Positions 1 to 27,670 of a DNA stretch of 64,000 bases are shown in pieces. The position numbers and the translations under genes were made by a program. Under the pieces are notes generated by a model, which was not told the origin of the DNA, did no database searches, and worked only from the letters and a program-made list of their open reading frames with translations. How positions within the stretch are numbered: position 1 is the first letter of the stretch; each line of letters opens with the position of its first letter. This DNA comes from Escherichia phage vB_EcoM_CE1, in sequence record ON229909.1; one strand, written 5' to 3'.

Positions 1-2643
<2,643 letters not shown>

Positions 2644-2684
2644 GATTTCTCCTAATCTGGGCTTTAATTAGTTTATAATATTTA

Positions 2685-4386
<1,702 letters not shown>

Positions 4387-20355: not shown

Positions 20356-20929
20356 AAGATTTCTCCATTATACGTATAAGGTCGTTCATAAATGAATTAA
20401 TGTCTGATTTTGCTATTATTTTTATTTGACGAAGTTTTTCATTTTCAAGAACAGCAGCTTCATACGTATCAACAGCAGCAAGTGCTCCTTCATATTGAGG
20501 ATATTTTCTAGCTTTATCGCCTTTATCATACCAAACATACGGATTATCATCGTATGATATTAAATTATAAAATTTTTCACCGTTCTCATTCACGTGATAT
20601 ACTATTTGGTCTCCACCTACATTTTTGTATTTTTGTATAGATGCTTGATAAGCAGCTTCTTGTGAAGTAATCCATCCATAATACGGATCGTAATTATCAT
20701 TACACATTAATAAAACCCAATACAGCTGTGGATTTCCATATATGGTATTTGCTAATTCTTCCGGGCGTGGTGAACCTTTAATATAATAAGTACGTAAGCG
20801 GTATCCCGCAAGAGCGCGTTTGAAATAGTCTTTATAATTTCTAAAAATATCTGTCATAGGAATAGTCGGCGCGTTTTTATTCACTGTTTTGGCCGCATAT
20901 TCAATCGGATCAAAAAATGTAAAGAGCAT
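20339..20929 (-). CDS. 53: baseplate wedge protein
   Basis: 196 aa as T4 gp53. Confidence 0.85.
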   Translation of the reverse strand: MLFTFFDPIEYAAKTVNKNAPTIPMTDIFRNYKDYFKRALAGYRLRTYYIKGSPRPEELANTIYGNPQLYWVLLMCNDNYDPYYGWITSQEAAYQASIQKYKNVGGDQIVYHVNENGEKFYNLISYDDNPYVWYDKGDKARKYPQYEGALAAVDTYEAAVLENEKLRQIKIIAKSDINSFMNDLIRIMEKSYGNDK

Positions 20930-20942
20930 GGGCCCTCCTGTT

Positions 20943-20950
20943 TATAAATA
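20943..20950 (+). promoter_or_regulatory. T4-type late promoter TATAAATA for gene 4
   Basis: Exact TATAAATA 26 nt upstream of gene 4 ATG. Confidence 0.65.
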
Positions 20951-20957
20951 TATTATC

Positions 20958-20965
20958 TATTTATA
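20958..20965 (-). promoter_or_regulatory. T4-type late promoter TATAAATA for gene 53 (divergent from gene 4 promoter)
   Basis: Exact TATAAATA on minus strand 28 nt upstream of gene 53 ATG. Confidence 0.65.
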
Positions 20966-20976
20966 AGGAGAATCCA

Positions 20977-21429
20977 ATGGCATATTCTGGAAAATGGGTT
21001 CCTAAAAATATATCAAAGTATAGAGGTGACCCTAAAAAAATTACGTATAGATCAAATTGGGAAAAATTCTTTTTTGAATGGTTAGATAAAAATCCAGAAA
21101 TTATTGCATGGGGTAGTGAAACAGCAGTAATTCCTTATTTTTGTAATGCCGAAGGGAAAAAACGTAGATACTTCATGGATATTTGGATGAAAGATTCTTC
21201 TGGACAAGAATTTTTTATTGAAATAAAACCTAAAAAAGAAACACAACCACCAGTTAAACCAGCACATCTAACGACCGCAGCGAAGAAAAGATTTATGAAT
21301 GAAATTTATACCTGGTCTGTGAACACTGATAAATGGAAAGCAGCACAATCTTTAGCTGAAAAGCGTGGAATAAAATTTAGAATTCTAACAGAAGATGGAT
21401 TACGAGCTCTTGGCTTTAAGGGGGCATAA
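20977..21429 (+). CDS. 4: head completion protein
   Basis: 150 aa, matches remembered T4 gp4. Confidence 0.85.
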
Positions 21430-22256
21430 TGGCTATTTTTCAAATAATTAATGAAAGCACTCCCCAAGTTCCAAAGGTTAAGCAATCATTAAATGAAAAG
21501 AAATGGATTCAGATAGGTCTTGAATATAAAAAGGCCAAAGCAAAAGGAATGACAGGAAAGCAATTTGCTGAAGAAAGAGGAATTAAATACTCTACGTTTA
21601 CTTCAGCAATGTCAAAATATGCTTCAGGAATTAAAACGGCTGAAAAGATTCAAAAACTTGAATCAAAACCAATGAATAAACTCAATAAGCAAGAAAGACA
21701 ACTGCTTATGATAAATTCATTCAGGCAAACATTGCGTGATAAAATTCGTAATGAAGGCGCAGCAATTAATAATAAAACCAGAAAGTGGTTTGCTGAAACT
21801 ATTAAGCAGGTAAAAGGACATAAAGTTGTTCGCCCGCAGCCGGGACGAATATATGCTTTTGCTTATGATGCTAAACACAAGGAAACTCTTCCTTACTGGG
21901 ATAAATTTCCTTTGATAATTTACCTTGGTTTAGGTAAGCATAATTTAATGTACGGATTAAACTTGCACTATATTCCACCTAAAGCTCGTCAGCAATTTCT
22001 AGAAGAGCTTTTAAAGCAATATTCAAATACACCTACTATTACTAATAAAACGAAATTAAAAATTGATTGGAGTCAAGTGAAAGGATTTAGAGGTGCAGAC
22101 CAAATGATTAAGGCATATATACCTGGTAATATTATGGGTAGCCTAGTTGAAATCGCCCCGAAAGACTGGGCGAACGTTGTGTTAATGCCACTCCAAAGCT
22201 TCTACTCCAAAGGAAAACGTTTCTCTGCAAACAAAGTTTGGAGCAATGTACGATGA
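21429..22256 (+). CDS. 2: DNA end protector protein
   Basis: 275 aa, position and size as T4 gp2. Confidence 0.85.
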
Positions 22257-22909
22257 ATTATGAAAAAATTTATAATTCACTAATTGATAGGGCTCGCAAT
22301 AGAGCCCTTACTGGATATAAAGAAAGACATCATATTATTCCGAAATGTTTAGGCGGTAGTAATGATGCTTCTAACTTGGTTGATTTAACTCCAGAAGAGC
22401 ATTATGTTGCACATCAACTATTAGTAAAAATACACCCAAATTCTTTAAAATTATCTTATGCGGCCATAAAAATGACGGTTTCAACTAAATATGTTAGGAG
22501 AAATAATAAAGTTTATGGTTGGTTAAAAAGAAAACATGCAAATAATATTTCAAATACACAAACTGGACGAAAATATAATAATGGTAAAAGATGTATAAAA
22601 TTGCATGATGGAGATATAATTCCTGAGGGATTTATTTTAGGAAGAGGATGGAGTCCGACACAAGGCACAACTCATTCTAGAAAAAATGATACATTTAAAA
22701 ACAAAAAGCTTCAATCTGCTTTAGCTAATAAACGGTGGGAAAAAGAAAAGAAAATAATGTTAGATAACTTTGGAGTTAGCACTATTGATGAAGCAAAGAA
22801 AATTGTTCTTGATTTTAAATCAACTTGTCATCCAAGATATTGGCGAAAGCCAACTTTAGAAAAATTTCCATTTATGACTTCTGCTCGTTTAAGAAGTCTA
22901 ATAAATTAA
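22253..22909 (+). CDS. HNH homing endonuclease (Mob-like)
   Basis: HNH motif [27 protein letters not shown]; ATG 22253 in ATGA overlap with gene 2 stop (ORF track start 22238). Confidence 0.7.
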
Positions 22910-23015
22910 TTCTATTATCTTCCATTCTTTTCTATTGTTTGTTCTAATTGGAATTGAATGGAAGGGACTTAGACCCATTATACCACCAACATTTATAAAG
23001 CATTATGAGGAATAT

Positions 23016-23546
23016 ATGTCACAAGCACTACAACAAATTTTTAACCAAGCAAATACAACTAACTTTGTAGTATCAATACCGCATAGTAATACTACATCTG
23101 CTTTTACTTTAAATGCTCAGTCAGTTCCTATTCCAGGAATTAGAATACCTGTTACTGATACCGTGACTGGGCCGTTTGGACTAGGCAGAGCGCAACGTCC
23201 AGGAGTTACATTTGAGTACGACCCACTCATTGTGAGATTTATAGTTGATGAAGAACTTAAGTCGTGGATAGGAATGTATGAATGGATGCTAGGAACTAGT
23301 AACTATCTTACAGGCGAAAATACTGCCCAAAAAACAGGTCCTGAATACATTACGCTTTACATTTTAGATAATAGTAAAACTGAAATCGTGATGTCAATAA
23401 ATTTTTATAAGCCTTGGGTTTCTGACCTGTCTGAAGTAGAATTTAGCTACACTGAAGATTCAGACCCGGCTTTAGTATGTACAGCAACGATTCCTTATAC
23501 GTATTTTCAAGTAGAAAAAGATGGCAAAATTATAGCAGAAGTTTAA
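23016..23546 (+). CDS. 3: tail completion / sheath stabilizer protein
   Basis: ORF track 22935..23546; start moved to MSQALQQIF giving 176 aa as T4 gp3. Confidence 0.8.
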   Translation: MSQALQQIFNQANTTNFVVSIPHSNTTSAFTLNAQSVPIPGIRIPVTDTVTGPFGLGRAQRPGVTFEYDPLIVRFIVDEELKSWIGMYEWMLGTSNYLTGENTAQKTGPEYITLYILDNSKTEIVMSINFYKPWVSDLSEVEFSYTEDSDPALVCTATIPYTYFQVEKDGKIIAEV

Positions 23547-23570
23547 TGCTTCAGTTTCATGTGTTATAAT
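23545..23570 (+). promoter_or_regulatory. T4 middle promoter (MotA box aaTGCTTca plus -10 TATAAT) for gene 1
   Basis: MotA-box consensus 11 nt upstream of TATAAT, 26 nt before gene 1 ATG. Confidence 0.6.
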
Positions 23571-23595
23571 CTTAACTAAATTTGAGGAGAAACAT

Positions 23596-24308
23596 ATGAA
23601 ACTAATCTTTTTAAGTGGTGTAAAGCGCAGTGGAAAAGATACTACTGCAGATTTTATCATGGAAAATTATTCTGCAGTTAAATATCAACTTGCTGGTCCT
23701 ATTAAAGATGCATTGGCTTATGCATGGGGTGTATTTGCAGCAAACACTGACTATCCTTGCTTAACTCGTAAAGAGTTTGAAGGAATTGACTATGATCGTG
23801 AGACTAATTTAAATCTGACTAAATTAGAAGTAATTACGATTATGGAACAAGCATTTTGCTATCTTAATAGTAAAAGCCCAATTAAAGGTGTGTTTATTTT
23901 TGATGACGCAGTTAATTTCGTAGCATTTAACAAGATTGCTGACGTTATAAATAATATTGAAGATCAATGGTCAGTCCGTCGTCTGATGCAAGCCCTAGGT
24001 ACGGATTTGATTGTTAATAACTTCGACCGCATGTATTGGGTAAAATTATTTGCTTTAGATTATCTTGATAAATTTAACTCAGGTTATGATTATTATATCG
24101 TTCCTGATACTCGTCAAGATCATGAAATGGATGCGGCTAGGGCGATGGGTGCTACAGTAATTCATGTAGTTCGTCCTGGTCAAAAATCCAATGATACTCA
24201 TATTACAGAAGCTGGATTGCCAATTCGTGATGGCGATTTAGTAATTACAAACGATGGTTCTCTTGAAGAACTTTTTTCTAAAATTAAAAATACACTAAAG
24301 GTACTATA

Positions 24309-24309
<1 letters not shown>
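23596..24309 (+). CDS. 1: deoxynucleoside monophosphate kinase
   Basis: 237 aa, matches remembered T4 gp1 (P-loop GVKRSGKDT). Confidence 0.9.
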
Positions 24310-25006
<697 letters not shown>

Positions 25007-25078: not shown

Positions 25079-25366
25079 ATGAAAACTTTCAAAGAATTTA
25101 CTTCTACAACTACCCCGGTTTCTACTATTACCGAAGCTACTCTTACTTCTGAAGTTATTAAAGCAAATAAAGGACGAGAAGGTAAACCAATGATTAGTTT
25201 GGTTGATGGCGAAGAAATCAAAGGTACTGTTTACCTAGGTGATGGGTGGTCTGCTAAAAAGGATGGTGCTACAATCATTATCTCTCCTGCTGAAGAAACT
25301 GCGTTGTTTAAAGCTAAACACATTTCTGCGGCACATCTCAAGATTATTGCTAAAAATCTTTTGTAA
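25079..25366 (+). CDS. ipI: internal protein I (capsid-targeted, CTS MKTFKEF)
   Basis: 95 aa, matches remembered T4 IPI. Confidence 0.85.
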   Translation: MKTFKEFTSTTTPVSTITEATLTSEVIKANKGREGKPMISLVDGEEIKGTVYLGDGWSAKKDGATIIISPAEETALFKAKHISAAHLKIIAKNLL

Positions 25367-27004: not shown

Positions 27005-27670
27005 ATGTTCCATTACATTTATAAAATAACAAATAAAATTAATAATAAAATTTATATTGGTGTGCATTCTACCGAAAATTTAGATGATGGATATATGGGT
27101 TCTGGTAAATTATTAAAAAGAGCCCAAGATAAGTATGGTATAGAAAATTTTTCTAAAGAAATATTAGAGTTCTTTGACGATAAAACCTCTATGTTTGAGA
27201 CAGAAAAGAATATTGTGACTGAAGAGTTTTTAAAGCGCCCTGATGTTTATAATTTGAAATTAGGTGGTGAAGGTGGATGGGACCATTTAAACACTAAAGA
27301 ATATTTGGATAAAAAGAAAGAAGCTTCCTTAAAAGGAGCTGCCGCTTTTAAAACCAGATTTGAGAACGACCCAGACCTTAAAGAAAAATATCGTAAAATG
27401 GGTTCAGAAAGGTTTAAACAGCTTTGGGATAATCCTAAGTATAGAGAGAAATTTTTAAATACTAAATCTTTCTTGGGTAAGACCCATACTCCTGAAACTA
27501 TTAATAAAATGAAAGAATCTCACGCCAGAAATAAACACCAACAAAGTGAAAAGAATTCCCAATTTGGCATGATGTGGATTCATTCATTAGATGAAAAAGT
27601 TTCTAAACGTATTAAGAAAACTGACCCAATTCCAGAAGGATGGTTTAAAGGTCGAAAAATGAAATTTTAA
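27005..27670 (+). CDS. segB: GIY-YIG homing endonuclease SegB inside tRNA cluster
   Basis: 221 aa, FHYIYKITN...YIGVHS GIY-YIG motif; located between tRNA-Ile and tRNA-Arg as in T4. Confidence 0.85.
   Translation: MFHYIYKITNKINNKIYIGVHSTENLDDGYMGSGKLLKRAQDKYGIENFSKEILEFFDDKTSMFETEKNIVTEEFLKRPDVYNLKLGGEGGWDHLNTKEYLDKKKEASLKGAAAFKTRFENDPDLKEKYRKMGSERFKQLWDNPKYREKFLNTKSFLGKTHTPETINKMKESHARNKHQQSEKNSQFGMMWIHSLDEKVSKRIKKTDPIPEGWFKGRKMKF

Follow-up and report, generated by a model that had tools for sequence, protein, structure and literature searches.

A putative free-standing Mob-type HNH homing endonuclease gene between genes 2 and 3 of Escherichia phage vB_EcoM_CE1

That T-even genomes carry genes for Mob-type endonucleases is textbook knowledge. 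MobE of T4 is encoded by a promoterless gene that is co-transcribed with the upstream gene, and the enzyme nicks the endonuclease-free allele (Wilson and Edgell 2009, PMC2790892); a hairpin sequestering the mobE ribosome-binding site has also been described, as cited in passages of PMC2988022 and PMC2993671, the former a review of how seg and mob genes are embedded and translationally controlled. SegF and SegG of T4 are encoded by free-standing genes between conserved genes, cut the allele without the gene and co-convert flanking markers (as cited in a passage of PMC2993671). Here we compare with these systems a 218-aa open reading frame (ORF) in a 64,000-nt stretch of Escherichia phage vB_EcoM_CE1 (record ON229909.1; hereafter the window). 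As with SegF and SegG, carriers and non-carriers differ in sequence near the insertion site, but cutting by the window's enzyme is a prediction from sequence, and the catalytic family of SegF and SegG (GIY-YIG) is unrelated to the window's HNH. I-HmuI and I-TevIII resemble the window's protein in having an N-terminal HNH nuclease, which in those enzymes is followed by extended DNA-binding modules, as it may be here; yet both are intron-encoded, whereas the window's gene is not, its insert bordering on the stop codon of gene 2 at one end and on the native spacer at the other. MobE differs in its target (nrdA/nrdB) and in its C-terminal half; unlike mobE, moreover, the window's gene has its start coupled to the upstream stop, and its cassette supplies part of the host gene's coding tail.

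A preliminary description of this DNA had proposed that the start codon of the ORF overlaps the stop of gene 2 as ATGA, that a spacer of about 100 nt separates it from gene 3, and that it is a Mob-type free-standing insertion in a block that is otherwise conserved, genes 2 and 3 being adjacent in T4. The overlap was confirmed (Table 1), with the ATG lying within acgATGAatt and sharing letters with the TGA that ends gene 2, an ORF of 275 aa; the spacer measures 106 nt; and in T4 (NC_000866) no gene lies in the 106 nt that part gene 2 (76061-76885) from gene 3 (75424-75954). Neighbouring genes, called via Pfam (gp19-like gp3, TnsA-like gp4, dNMP kinase) and T4 annotation, run in the order 53 (minus strand), 4, 2, the HNH ORF, 3, 1 and 57A, and both gp2 and gp3 are full length in the window. 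Judging by its 657 nt in an AT-rich phage and its thousands of homologues, the ORF is no chance reading frame. We put at roughly 85% the probability that it is a free-standing member of T4's Mob (HNH) family of homing endonuclease genes and corresponds to ORF146c of RB32 as one and the same element; the insertion proposed earlier is supported both by empty sites in related phages and by the HNH/Mob assignment.

Table 1. Features of the gene 2-gene 3 region, in window coordinates
Feature	Position	Strand	Details
T4-type late promoter motif TATAAATA	20943..20950	+	Exact motif search; 26 nt upstream of gene 4
Gene 2 (DNA end protector gp2)	21429..22256	+	275 aa vs 274 aa in T4; last codons are those of the inserted cassette
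Gene 2 block linked to the endonuclease gene	22193..22208	+	9 substitutions in 16 nt: CTCCAAAGCTTCTACTCC vs T4 CTTCAGCAGTTCGTTTCA; gp2 QSFY vs QQFV
Left junction, recoded gp2 tail	22238..22256	+	GTT TGG AGC AAT GTA CGA TGA vs T4 GTC TGG TCA AAT ATC TAA
Predicted RNA hairpin pairing GGAG and AUG of the HNH ORF	22238..22299	+	MFE -17.7 kcal/mol, z = -4.2
Putative Mob-like HNH homing endonuclease gene, free-standing, 218 aa	22253..22909	+	Orthologue of RB32 ORF146c
HNH catalytic motif, residues 24-54	22322..22414	+	Invariant columns, family profile, structure model
In-frame 3-nt deletion, Tyr108 lost	22571..22579	+	K-Y-Y-N-N-G to K-Y-N-N-G; window only
Right junction: TAA stop and native 106-nt 2/3 spacer (spacer 22910-23015)	22907..23015	+	Matches empty-site spacer from TAATTCTATTATC onward
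Gene 3 (tail completion and sheath stabiliser, 176 aa), downstream, unaltered	23016..23546	+	ORF call, Pfam, T4 annotation

The HNH motif quoted in the preliminary description, which falls at residues 24-50, is borne out by PHROG 655, invariant residues, a family profile and a fold match to MobB. Of the profile searches, that against PHROG 655 ('homing endonuclease') was positive (E = 3e-59), while the two Pfam models stayed below their gathering scores (HNH, PF01844, 16.5 bits against 21.4; HNH_5, PF14279, 17.8 bits against 27.5), and an NCBIfam search returned a weak IscB HNH match alone. Ten residues (E24, H26, H27, P30, C32, G35, N41, E49, H50 and H54) are invariant in an alignment of 30 relatives, 21 of which match PF01844 at E <= 0.01 (best 1.7e-4). 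With the family profile, McrA, a group II intron maturase and Cas8-HNH align to this motif at their own HNH motifs (E = 0.003-0.03). In the structure model, residues 24-27 and 42-45 form strands and residues 47-60 a helix, at pLDDT values above 90. On these comparisons the motif is real and the lineage is divergent from the Pfam seed.

Within the HNH proteins, the Mob family is indicated by both structure and sequence. Foldseek searches of BFVD with the predicted structure matched T4 MobB (P13329; E = 6e-11, 217 columns, 33% identity), which is of Mob-type HNH fold but has 264 aa and is encoded elsewhere in T4, and T4 MobC (E = 7e-7). By tblastn, the N-terminal 70-110 residues are 43-53% identical to MobA-position, MobB, MobD and MobE genes: 49.5% to RB59 mobB (residues 1-102), 43% to T6 mobE (residues 1-109), 53% to T4 mobD and 45% to the endonuclease gene beside the T4 topoisomerase II large-subunit gene (the mobA position). 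The C-terminal half, in contrast, is specific to copies on the gene 2 tail, while the N-terminal nuclease domain is common to Mob genes elsewhere; a site-bound C-terminal half joined to a general N-terminal domain is what one sees in homing enzymes that are site-specific. Searches of PDB chains gave no detectable sequence match and no convincing fold match, and for the C-terminal half the fold searches were uninformative. No NUMOD domain was found by Pfam in the window's protein; NUMOD3 is matched by one of the 30 relatives, and some database relatives have PF07460 (NUMOD3) or PF22083 (I-HmuI NUMOD-like). Since no Rfam family, group I introns included, matches within 20500-24500, the gene is not intron-borne; no RNA-spliced sequence breaks up the host gene, and the old GenBank label 'intron-like' is a misnomer. 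No paralogue was found by tblastn within the window; a weak match at 25169-25252 was rejected as spurious, lying inside a 95-aa ORF (25079-25366) that is otherwise unlike the nuclease and resembles T4 internal protein I.

Copies in RB32 (ORF146c, YP_803088), RB33, HY03, vB_EcoM_112, fPS-2 and a51 are the same element at the same position with the same junctions, and are 97.3-98.6% identical in nucleotides to the window across gene 2-HNH-gene 3. The RB32 gene bears the annotation 'similar to mobB; not conserved from T4 position', and VR7 ORF161c bears a similar one. The RB32-type proteins have 219 aa and the window's 218 aa, the difference being the loss of Tyr108; the top 35 records each align over 2175 nt against the window's 2172, and the deletion is absent from the other database copies (36 compared). 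A Y-Y/F-N-N-G motif is kept in full-length relatives, and the window's copy, without Tyr108 in this conserved motif, could be impaired. We therefore weighed whether it is a decaying relic that arrived by homing and whose DNA binding is weakened by the loss of Tyr108, so that the ORF is intact but inactive in homing. The deletion is unique and falls in a motif that relatives of 50-65% identity have kept, degenerate copies of this element (frameshifted, internally deleted or read-through) exist in CT01, FL23/FL44 and Manna, and T4 I-TevIII offers the precedent of a defunct endonuclease that persists (PMC2790892). The reading frame and every invariant catalytic residue are nevertheless intact, the only other amino-acid difference from RB32 is one N-to-S change, the deletion takes one of two adjacent tyrosines in a TAT-TAT repeat and may be tolerated, and AlphaFold keeps a hairpin at the deletion region, at lower confidence (pLDDT 72-85). 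On balance we hold decay of this copy to be unlikely, at odds of about one in five.

Comparison with empty sites resolves the junctions of the putative endonuclease gene. The net insertion is 656 nt, placed in the last gene 2 codons, and gp2 ends in SNVR-stop in carriers against SNI-stop in the six empty-site phages compared. In the recoded tail, TGG-AGC (AGC being a new Ser codon) makes a GGAG (22240-22243) 9 nt before the HNH ATG, which would serve as Shine-Dalgarno sequence, or ribosome-binding site, for the nuclease ORF. At the other end, judged from the match to the empty-site spacer, the TAA of the HNH ORF is the old gene 2 stop, reused, and the spacer is outside the insert. The related genes of Gaprivervirus (VR7 ORF161c, VR25 gp282) are about 60% identical over their full length and also occupy the gene 2 tail with a start/stop overlap; their filled and empty sites follow the same right-junction logic, but these copies use a TTG start and are inserted exactly before the gene 2 stop without recoding the upstream codons. 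A target-site duplication was considered, in which the 3′ end of the HNH ORF, AAGTCTAATAAATTAA, is a copy of the gene 2 tail, AAGTCTGGTCAAATATCTAA; the likeness is probably fortuitous, since at the Gaprivervirus sites only the TAA and what lies downstream are native, and the C-terminal peptide is kept across genera. The T4-like 3′ end of Manna is better read as recombinant.

The insert is present in 36 of 518 Tequatrovirus records (about 7%; RB32, RB33, HY03, fPS-2 and others). In about 465 others, T4 and T2 among them, genes 2 and 3 are parted by the same spacer alone and no orthologue occupies the position; empty sites were seen also in ime09, BF15, Sa45lw and vB_SsoM_113. Nine of about 34 Gaprivervirus records have the gene, and its presence varies among phages that are otherwise 96-98% identical. 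Such a pattern might be produced by an old, non-mobile resident of the 2/3 position, passed down vertically and lost by deletion from T4 and most relatives, and a long association with gene 2 is indeed apparent: at least four further genera or lineages, including one metagenomic phage, have homologues of 46-65% identity at the tail of gene 2, and the overlap of gene 2 with the HNH gene recurs in Gaprivervirus, Roskildevirus, Moonvirus and the TAG-recoded metagenomic phage (in which the gene downstream is gp4-like). Against descent with repeated loss, all the empty-site records sampled in the two genera (Tequatrovirus and Gaprivervirus) have identical sites free of scars, and repeated deletion would not each time restore SNI-TAA and erase SNVR-TGA; the sole deletion seen, in CT01, keeps both junctions. 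Among seven related carrier genomes, moreover, nucleotide diversity is 0.008 in the endonuclease gene against 0.018 in the left flank and 0.025 in the right, so that diversity in the gene is 2-3 times below that of the flanks, and right-flank haplotypes are shuffled relative to gene presence from 27 nt off the junction, those of carriers being unrelated. We accordingly regard an old resident as very improbable.

HNH proteins beside terminases assist packaging in cos phages; T4-type phages have a terminase of their own and use headful packaging. The remaining alternative, a nuclease with another phage role (non-specific cutting of host or competitor DNA, or a packaging aid) that is for this reason coupled to gp2, can draw on the apparent translational coupling to gp2, which binds DNA ends and is itself packaged in the head, and on the side benefits that homing endonucleases can give phages (PMC13096335), but 93% of Tequatrovirus records are without the gene, the closest characterised relatives are site-specific Mob endonucleases, the site-bound C-terminal half joined to a shared nuclease domain and headful packaging speak against it as well, and we find it scarcely credible, rejecting the packaging-associated role on context and prevalence.

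Upstream of the putative homing endonuclease gene, a second polymorphism accompanies the insert. The 16-nt block listed in Table 1, 34-49 nt upstream in gene 2, occurs at eight of eight carrier or remnant loci and at one of six empty-site loci; across the database, it is found in every record with the insert and in about 15 empty-site records, the T4 form being found in about 451 empty-site records. The block may be a polymorphism for immunity or in the target, or else a remnant of co-conversion. A role as strict immunity determinant is weakened by the empty-site records that carry it, and in Gaprivervirus one block haplotype is shared by VR7, which has the gene, and SP18, which lacks it; together these occurrences argue that the block is no simple immunity marker.

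Expression signals were sought across the same region. The late promoter motif upstream of gene 4 is likely to mark the start of a 4-2-HNH late transcript; no other exact late motif was found between it and 23946, and sigma-70-like sites in the region are no commoner than in shuffles. The hairpin predicted over the start of the HNH ORF was equalled by none of 200 shuffled sequences. Tequatrovirus copies are identical across it and so carry no covariation signal, and it was not found in the Gaprivervirus, Roskildevirus and Moonvirus homologues; we offer it only as a predicted feature specific to Tequatrovirus.

From these observations we infer cleavage and homing by the HNH protein and propose the following course. 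The gene, which would have no promoter of its own, would be transcribed late with genes 4 and 2 from 20943, and would be translated at a low level by ribosomes that terminate on gene 2 and thereby open the hairpin over GGAG and AUG. The N-terminal HNH domain (residues 1-75) would nick or cut DNA, the target being read by the middle region with the Y-Y-N-N-G hairpin and by the C-terminal helical domain (about residues 105-217). When two phages infect together, the enzyme would break the endonuclease-free gene 2 tail of the co-infecting relative. T4 recombination-dependent repair would then mend the break by copying in the gene together with some 50 nt from the end of the donor's gene 2; the carrier would itself be immune, its site being interrupted by the insert and recoded. 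Literature searches for a characterised endonuclease adjacent to gene 2 found none.

A more specific version of this proposal, which we regard as tentative and rather doubtful, treats the element as a compact gene-2-tail cassette that rewrites the end of gp2 to provide its own ribosome-binding site and stop/start overlap, hides both of these in a hairpin and recognises a bipartite target. The hairpin would then allow only ribosomes finishing gp2 to start the HNH ORF, and the target would consist of the insertion point together with the hypervariable gp2 codons 34-75 nt upstream. If this held, repeated attack and escape would explain the polymorphism hot-spot at the gp2 C-terminus in two genera, and the family's habit of tracking gene 2, not gene 3, in at least five lineages, the TAG-recoded phage included, would also be explained.

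As a discovery the locus carries little weight. The element is already known, having been annotated in RB32 since 2006 and being one of the two mob-like genes of that phage counted in a 2010 review (PMC2993671), yet it is uncharacterised; it is real but ordinary. What is added here is detail: the recoded gp2 tail with its GGAG, the predicted hairpin, the linked 16-nt block, the relatives elsewhere, the degenerate copies and the loss of Tyr108. Natural filled, empty, frameshifted and deleted alleles offer cheap target mapping for a putative site-specific nuclease, and the insert marks a recombination boundary in the otherwise conserved block of head and tail completion genes of therapeutic T4-like phages. 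The recoded gp2 tail, finally, is a tidy example of a mobile gene that supplies part of its host gene's coding sequence along with its own translation signals.

The window carries a T4-type late-gene block that reads, in plus-strand order, 53(-), 4, 2, the HNH ORF, 3, 1, 57A. As the preliminary description had it, the 218-aa ORF starts in an ATGA overlap with the gene 2 stop; the spacer before gene 3, put there at about 100 nt, measures 106 nt from the ORF's TAA and is identical at every base to the 2/3 spacer of phages lacking the ORF. Its statement that genes 2 and 3 adjoin in T4 agrees with the reference annotation (gene 2, 76061-76885; gene 3, 75424-75954), in which nothing is annotated within the 106-nt gap. 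Upon searching with the gene 2-gene 3 region by megablast, 518 phage records were matched, nearly all Tequatrovirus; 36 of them (RB32, RB33, HY03, vB_EcoM_112, fPS-2, a51 and others) contain the entire interval at 97.3-98.6% identity, and the remainder align at 69% coverage, with exactly the ORF absent. Empty sites were read directly in vB_SsoM_113, ime09, BF15, T4, T2 and Sa45lw. The spacer itself holds a conserved, native imperfect hairpin (22918-22966; CUUCCAUUC ... GAAUGGAAG), also present in empty-site phages, without a U-tract and with a z-score of only -1.45. Further along, a 12-nt indel polymorphism near the 3' end of gene 1 varies without regard to the endonuclease gene: gene 1 encodes 237 aa in the window, JE01, HY03, fPS-2 and ime09, and 241 aa in T4, T2 and RB32.

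Coordinates of the late genes, the HNH ORF, its decayed copies and a metagenomic relative (local to each sequence)
Feature	Sequence	Position	Strand	Remarks
Gene 4	window	20977-21429	+	
Gene 2	window	21429-22256	+	
HNH ORF (218 aa)	window	22253-22909	+	ATG within acgATGAatt, overlapping the gene 2 TGA
Gene 3	window	23016-23546	+	
Gene 1 (dNMP kinase)	window	23596-24309	+	
57-aa remnant	Shigella phage CT01 (L006)	1577-1750		in-frame 486-nt internal deletion
Pseudogene	Escherichia phage FL23 (L008); FL44 likewise	1625-2283		1-nt deletion after codon 60
431-aa fusion ORF	Salmonella phage Manna (L007)	1625-2920		altered 3' end
Locus with gene 2 / HNH ATGA overlap	Logan SRR13090265 contig (L019), T4-like metagenomic phage, 29% GC	92-1662		

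The junctions can be read to the base. Empty sites end gene 2 as ...AAA GTC TGG TCA AAT ATC TAA TTCTATTATC... (gp2 terminating in KVWSNI), whereas the window reads ...AAA GTT TGG AGC AAT GTA CGA TGA ATT ATG... on the left and ...CTA ATA AAT TAA TTCTATTATC... on the right, a net insertion of 656 nt (659 nt in copies of the RB32 type, where Tyr108 is retained). The last three gp2 codons are thereby swapped for four cassette codons (SNVR), the cassette TGA overlaps the ATG, and the old gene 2 TAA serves as the stop of the HNH ORF. A synonymous serine change (TCA to AGC) turns TGG-TCA into TGG-AGC and so makes a GGAG motif (22240-22243), absent from the empty site, 9 nt 5' of the HNH ATG. In Gaprivervirus, the insertion point of the same family lies precisely after the last sense codon of gene 2 and before its TAA (AATTCA, then TAATCTATT). 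The addition here is one codon and a TGA, the latter overlapping a TTG start, and the GGAG (TGG AGA) is native rather than created by recoding as in Tequatrovirus. The layout of a four-codon tail plus TGA is the same in carriers of both genera, so element and tail may have come together from another lineage.

Carrier and empty alleles differ only at the junction and at an upstream block, where nine substitutions fall within 16 nt (22193-22208; gp2 QSFY versus QQFV), 34-49 nt upstream of the junction. The block, together with T for C at 22238, is common to all eight carrier or remnant loci, and of the six empty-site loci, five match T4 here; the 29 nt from block to junction are identical in 14/14 loci compared. 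With a 100-nt probe, the carrier form was found in every insert-bearing record and about 15 empty-site records, and the T4 form in about 451 empty-site records. A mismatch cluster also lies ~40-75 nt upstream in Gaprivervirus gene 2: UPEC07 and ECML-359 show 25 differences over 819 nt of the gene, 14 of them in this cluster. Because differences cluster in this way in both genera, a bipartite target is a reasonable hypothesis: the nuclease domain would cover the block, and the binding domain the junction, much as extended enzymes of the I-TevI kind do. The idea goes no further than a hypothesis, given the ~15 empty-site Tequatrovirus records with the block and given VR7 (with the gene) and SP18 (without it), which share one Gaprivervirus haplotype.

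On the right flank, linkage stops abruptly, and from 27 nt beyond the junction gene presence is uncoupled from haplotype: the window, JE01 and CT01 group with vB_SsoM_113, ime09 and BF15, and RB32, HY03, fPS-2, FL23 and Manna with T4, T2 and Sa45lw. Across seven carriers the gene has a nucleotide diversity of 0.008, lower than that of its left flank (0.018) and right flank (0.025). Every stage of decay is represented. The CT01 deletion takes out the entire HNH domain but spares both junctions, as well as the start hairpin and recoded gp2 tail; the FL23/FL44 frameshift leaves the gene annotated as two CDS; and in Manna a T4-like gene 2 tail, AGAAGTCAAATATCTAA, replaces AGAAGTCTAATAAATTAA, putting the TAA out of frame so that the annotated ORF reads on across the spacer and into gene 3; recombination or a sequencing fault is the probable cause. 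Block linkage, shuffled flanks, low diversity, decay and same-site relatives are the patterns predicted by intronless homing, and a resident gene deleted in most lineages fits them poorly. The window copy differs from 36/36 database copies by a unique 3-nt deletion (~22571-22579) that removes one Tyr of K-Y-Y-N-N-G, a motif conserved in relatives of 50-65% identity; its frame and catalytic residues are intact, and functional impairment seems unlikely.

The HNH assignment is supported. The protein matched PHROG 655 ('homing endonuclease') at 3e-59, and Pfam HNH and HNH_5 below threshold only; 2940 database proteins are related to it, and 21 of 30 aligned relatives match Pfam HNH. Y22, E24, H26, H27, P30, C32, G35, N41, E49, H50 and H54 are invariant in the 30-relative alignment, and the profile built from it aligns the motif to those of McrA, a group II intron maturase and Cas8-HNH. 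A confident AlphaFold model (mean pLDDT 88) has three parts: an N-terminal domain with short strands (24-27 and 42-45) and a helix (47-60), a lower-confidence hairpin region (105-150) and a helical C-terminal domain. Among viral predicted structures it matched T4 MobB (E = 6e-11 over 217 columns) and also MobC. By tblastn, residues 1-70 to 1-110 share 43-69% identity with Mob-type genes at other loci (the mobA position, mobB, mobD, mobE, genes adjoining nrdA, a neck-protein gene and helicase genes), consistent with the modular pattern typical of such enzymes; among the loci examined, full-length similarity of at least 46% is confined to gene-2-tail copies. Since no Rfam family, and hence no group I intron, was found at the locus, the element is free-standing and its old label 'intron-like' a misnomer. 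The proposal of a Mob-type free-standing insertion is supported: sequence, predicted fold, genomic habit and population pattern all make the protein a Mob family member, with putative cleavage and preferential inheritance. Elsewhere in the window (27005-27670, +), a 221-aa ORF with start MFHYIYKITNKINNKIYIGVHS looks like a GIY-YIG Seg-type homing endonuclease, which we take to resemble T4 SegB.

Members of the family are found at the gene 2-tail site in Gaprivervirus (9 of ~34 records), Roskildevirus and Moonvirus too. In the SRR13090265 contig the next gene is gp4-like instead of gene 3; this and the shared site in other genera therefore place the association with the gene 2 tail. That contig has in-frame TAG codons in gp2 (10) and the HNH gene (4), and since all four of the latter fall where the database protein has Gln, the implication is that the phage reads TAG as a sense codon. 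In Klebsiella phage 15882-3 (Jiaodavirus; L018, 2001-3109), a homologue (43% identity, 83% of the query covered) lies between genes 53 and 4, the latter (head closure) annotated in two pieces, and in UPEC07 (L003, 46-753) a homing endonuclease gene directly precedes gene 4; this position seems to be another hot-spot for insertion within the block.

An exact T4 late-promoter motif (TATAAATA, 20943-20950), the only one nearby, stands a short way upstream of gene 4, and a motif search found none in or just before the HNH ORF; between genes 53 and 4, exact motifs are divergent (20943 on +, 20958-20965 on -). Sigma-70-like and terminator-like sites occur near the ORF at chance frequency. Folding of RNA 22238-22299 predicts a hairpin pairing GGAG and AUG (-17.7 kcal/mol, z = -4.2, 0/200 shuffles). 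No such structure is predicted for the homologues in Gaprivervirus, Roskildevirus or Moonvirus; the region is identical among Tequatrovirus copies and so shows no covariation. Together with the ATGA overlap, the late motif and hairpin point to late transcription with genes 4 and 2 and to translation that would depend on ribosomes terminating at gene 2. Such expression would be of the restrained, host-parasitic kind shown for MobE (PMC2790892) and reviewed for seg and mob genes (PMC2988022).

The element is not novel, since public genomes already annotate it: RB32 lists it as ORF146c, 'similar to mobB; not conserved from T4 position', its Gaprivervirus counterparts in VR7 and VR25 are annotated as similar to MobB and RB32 ORF146c, and two mob-like HNH genes were counted in RB32 (Petrov et al. 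2010, PMC2993671). A literature search for characterisation of the gene-2-tail enzyme found no paper. Our additions are modest: a gp2 tail whose recoding builds in a ribosome-binding site, an upstream block linked to the gene, and the family's fidelity to the gene 2 tail. They lend themselves to concrete, cheap experiments.
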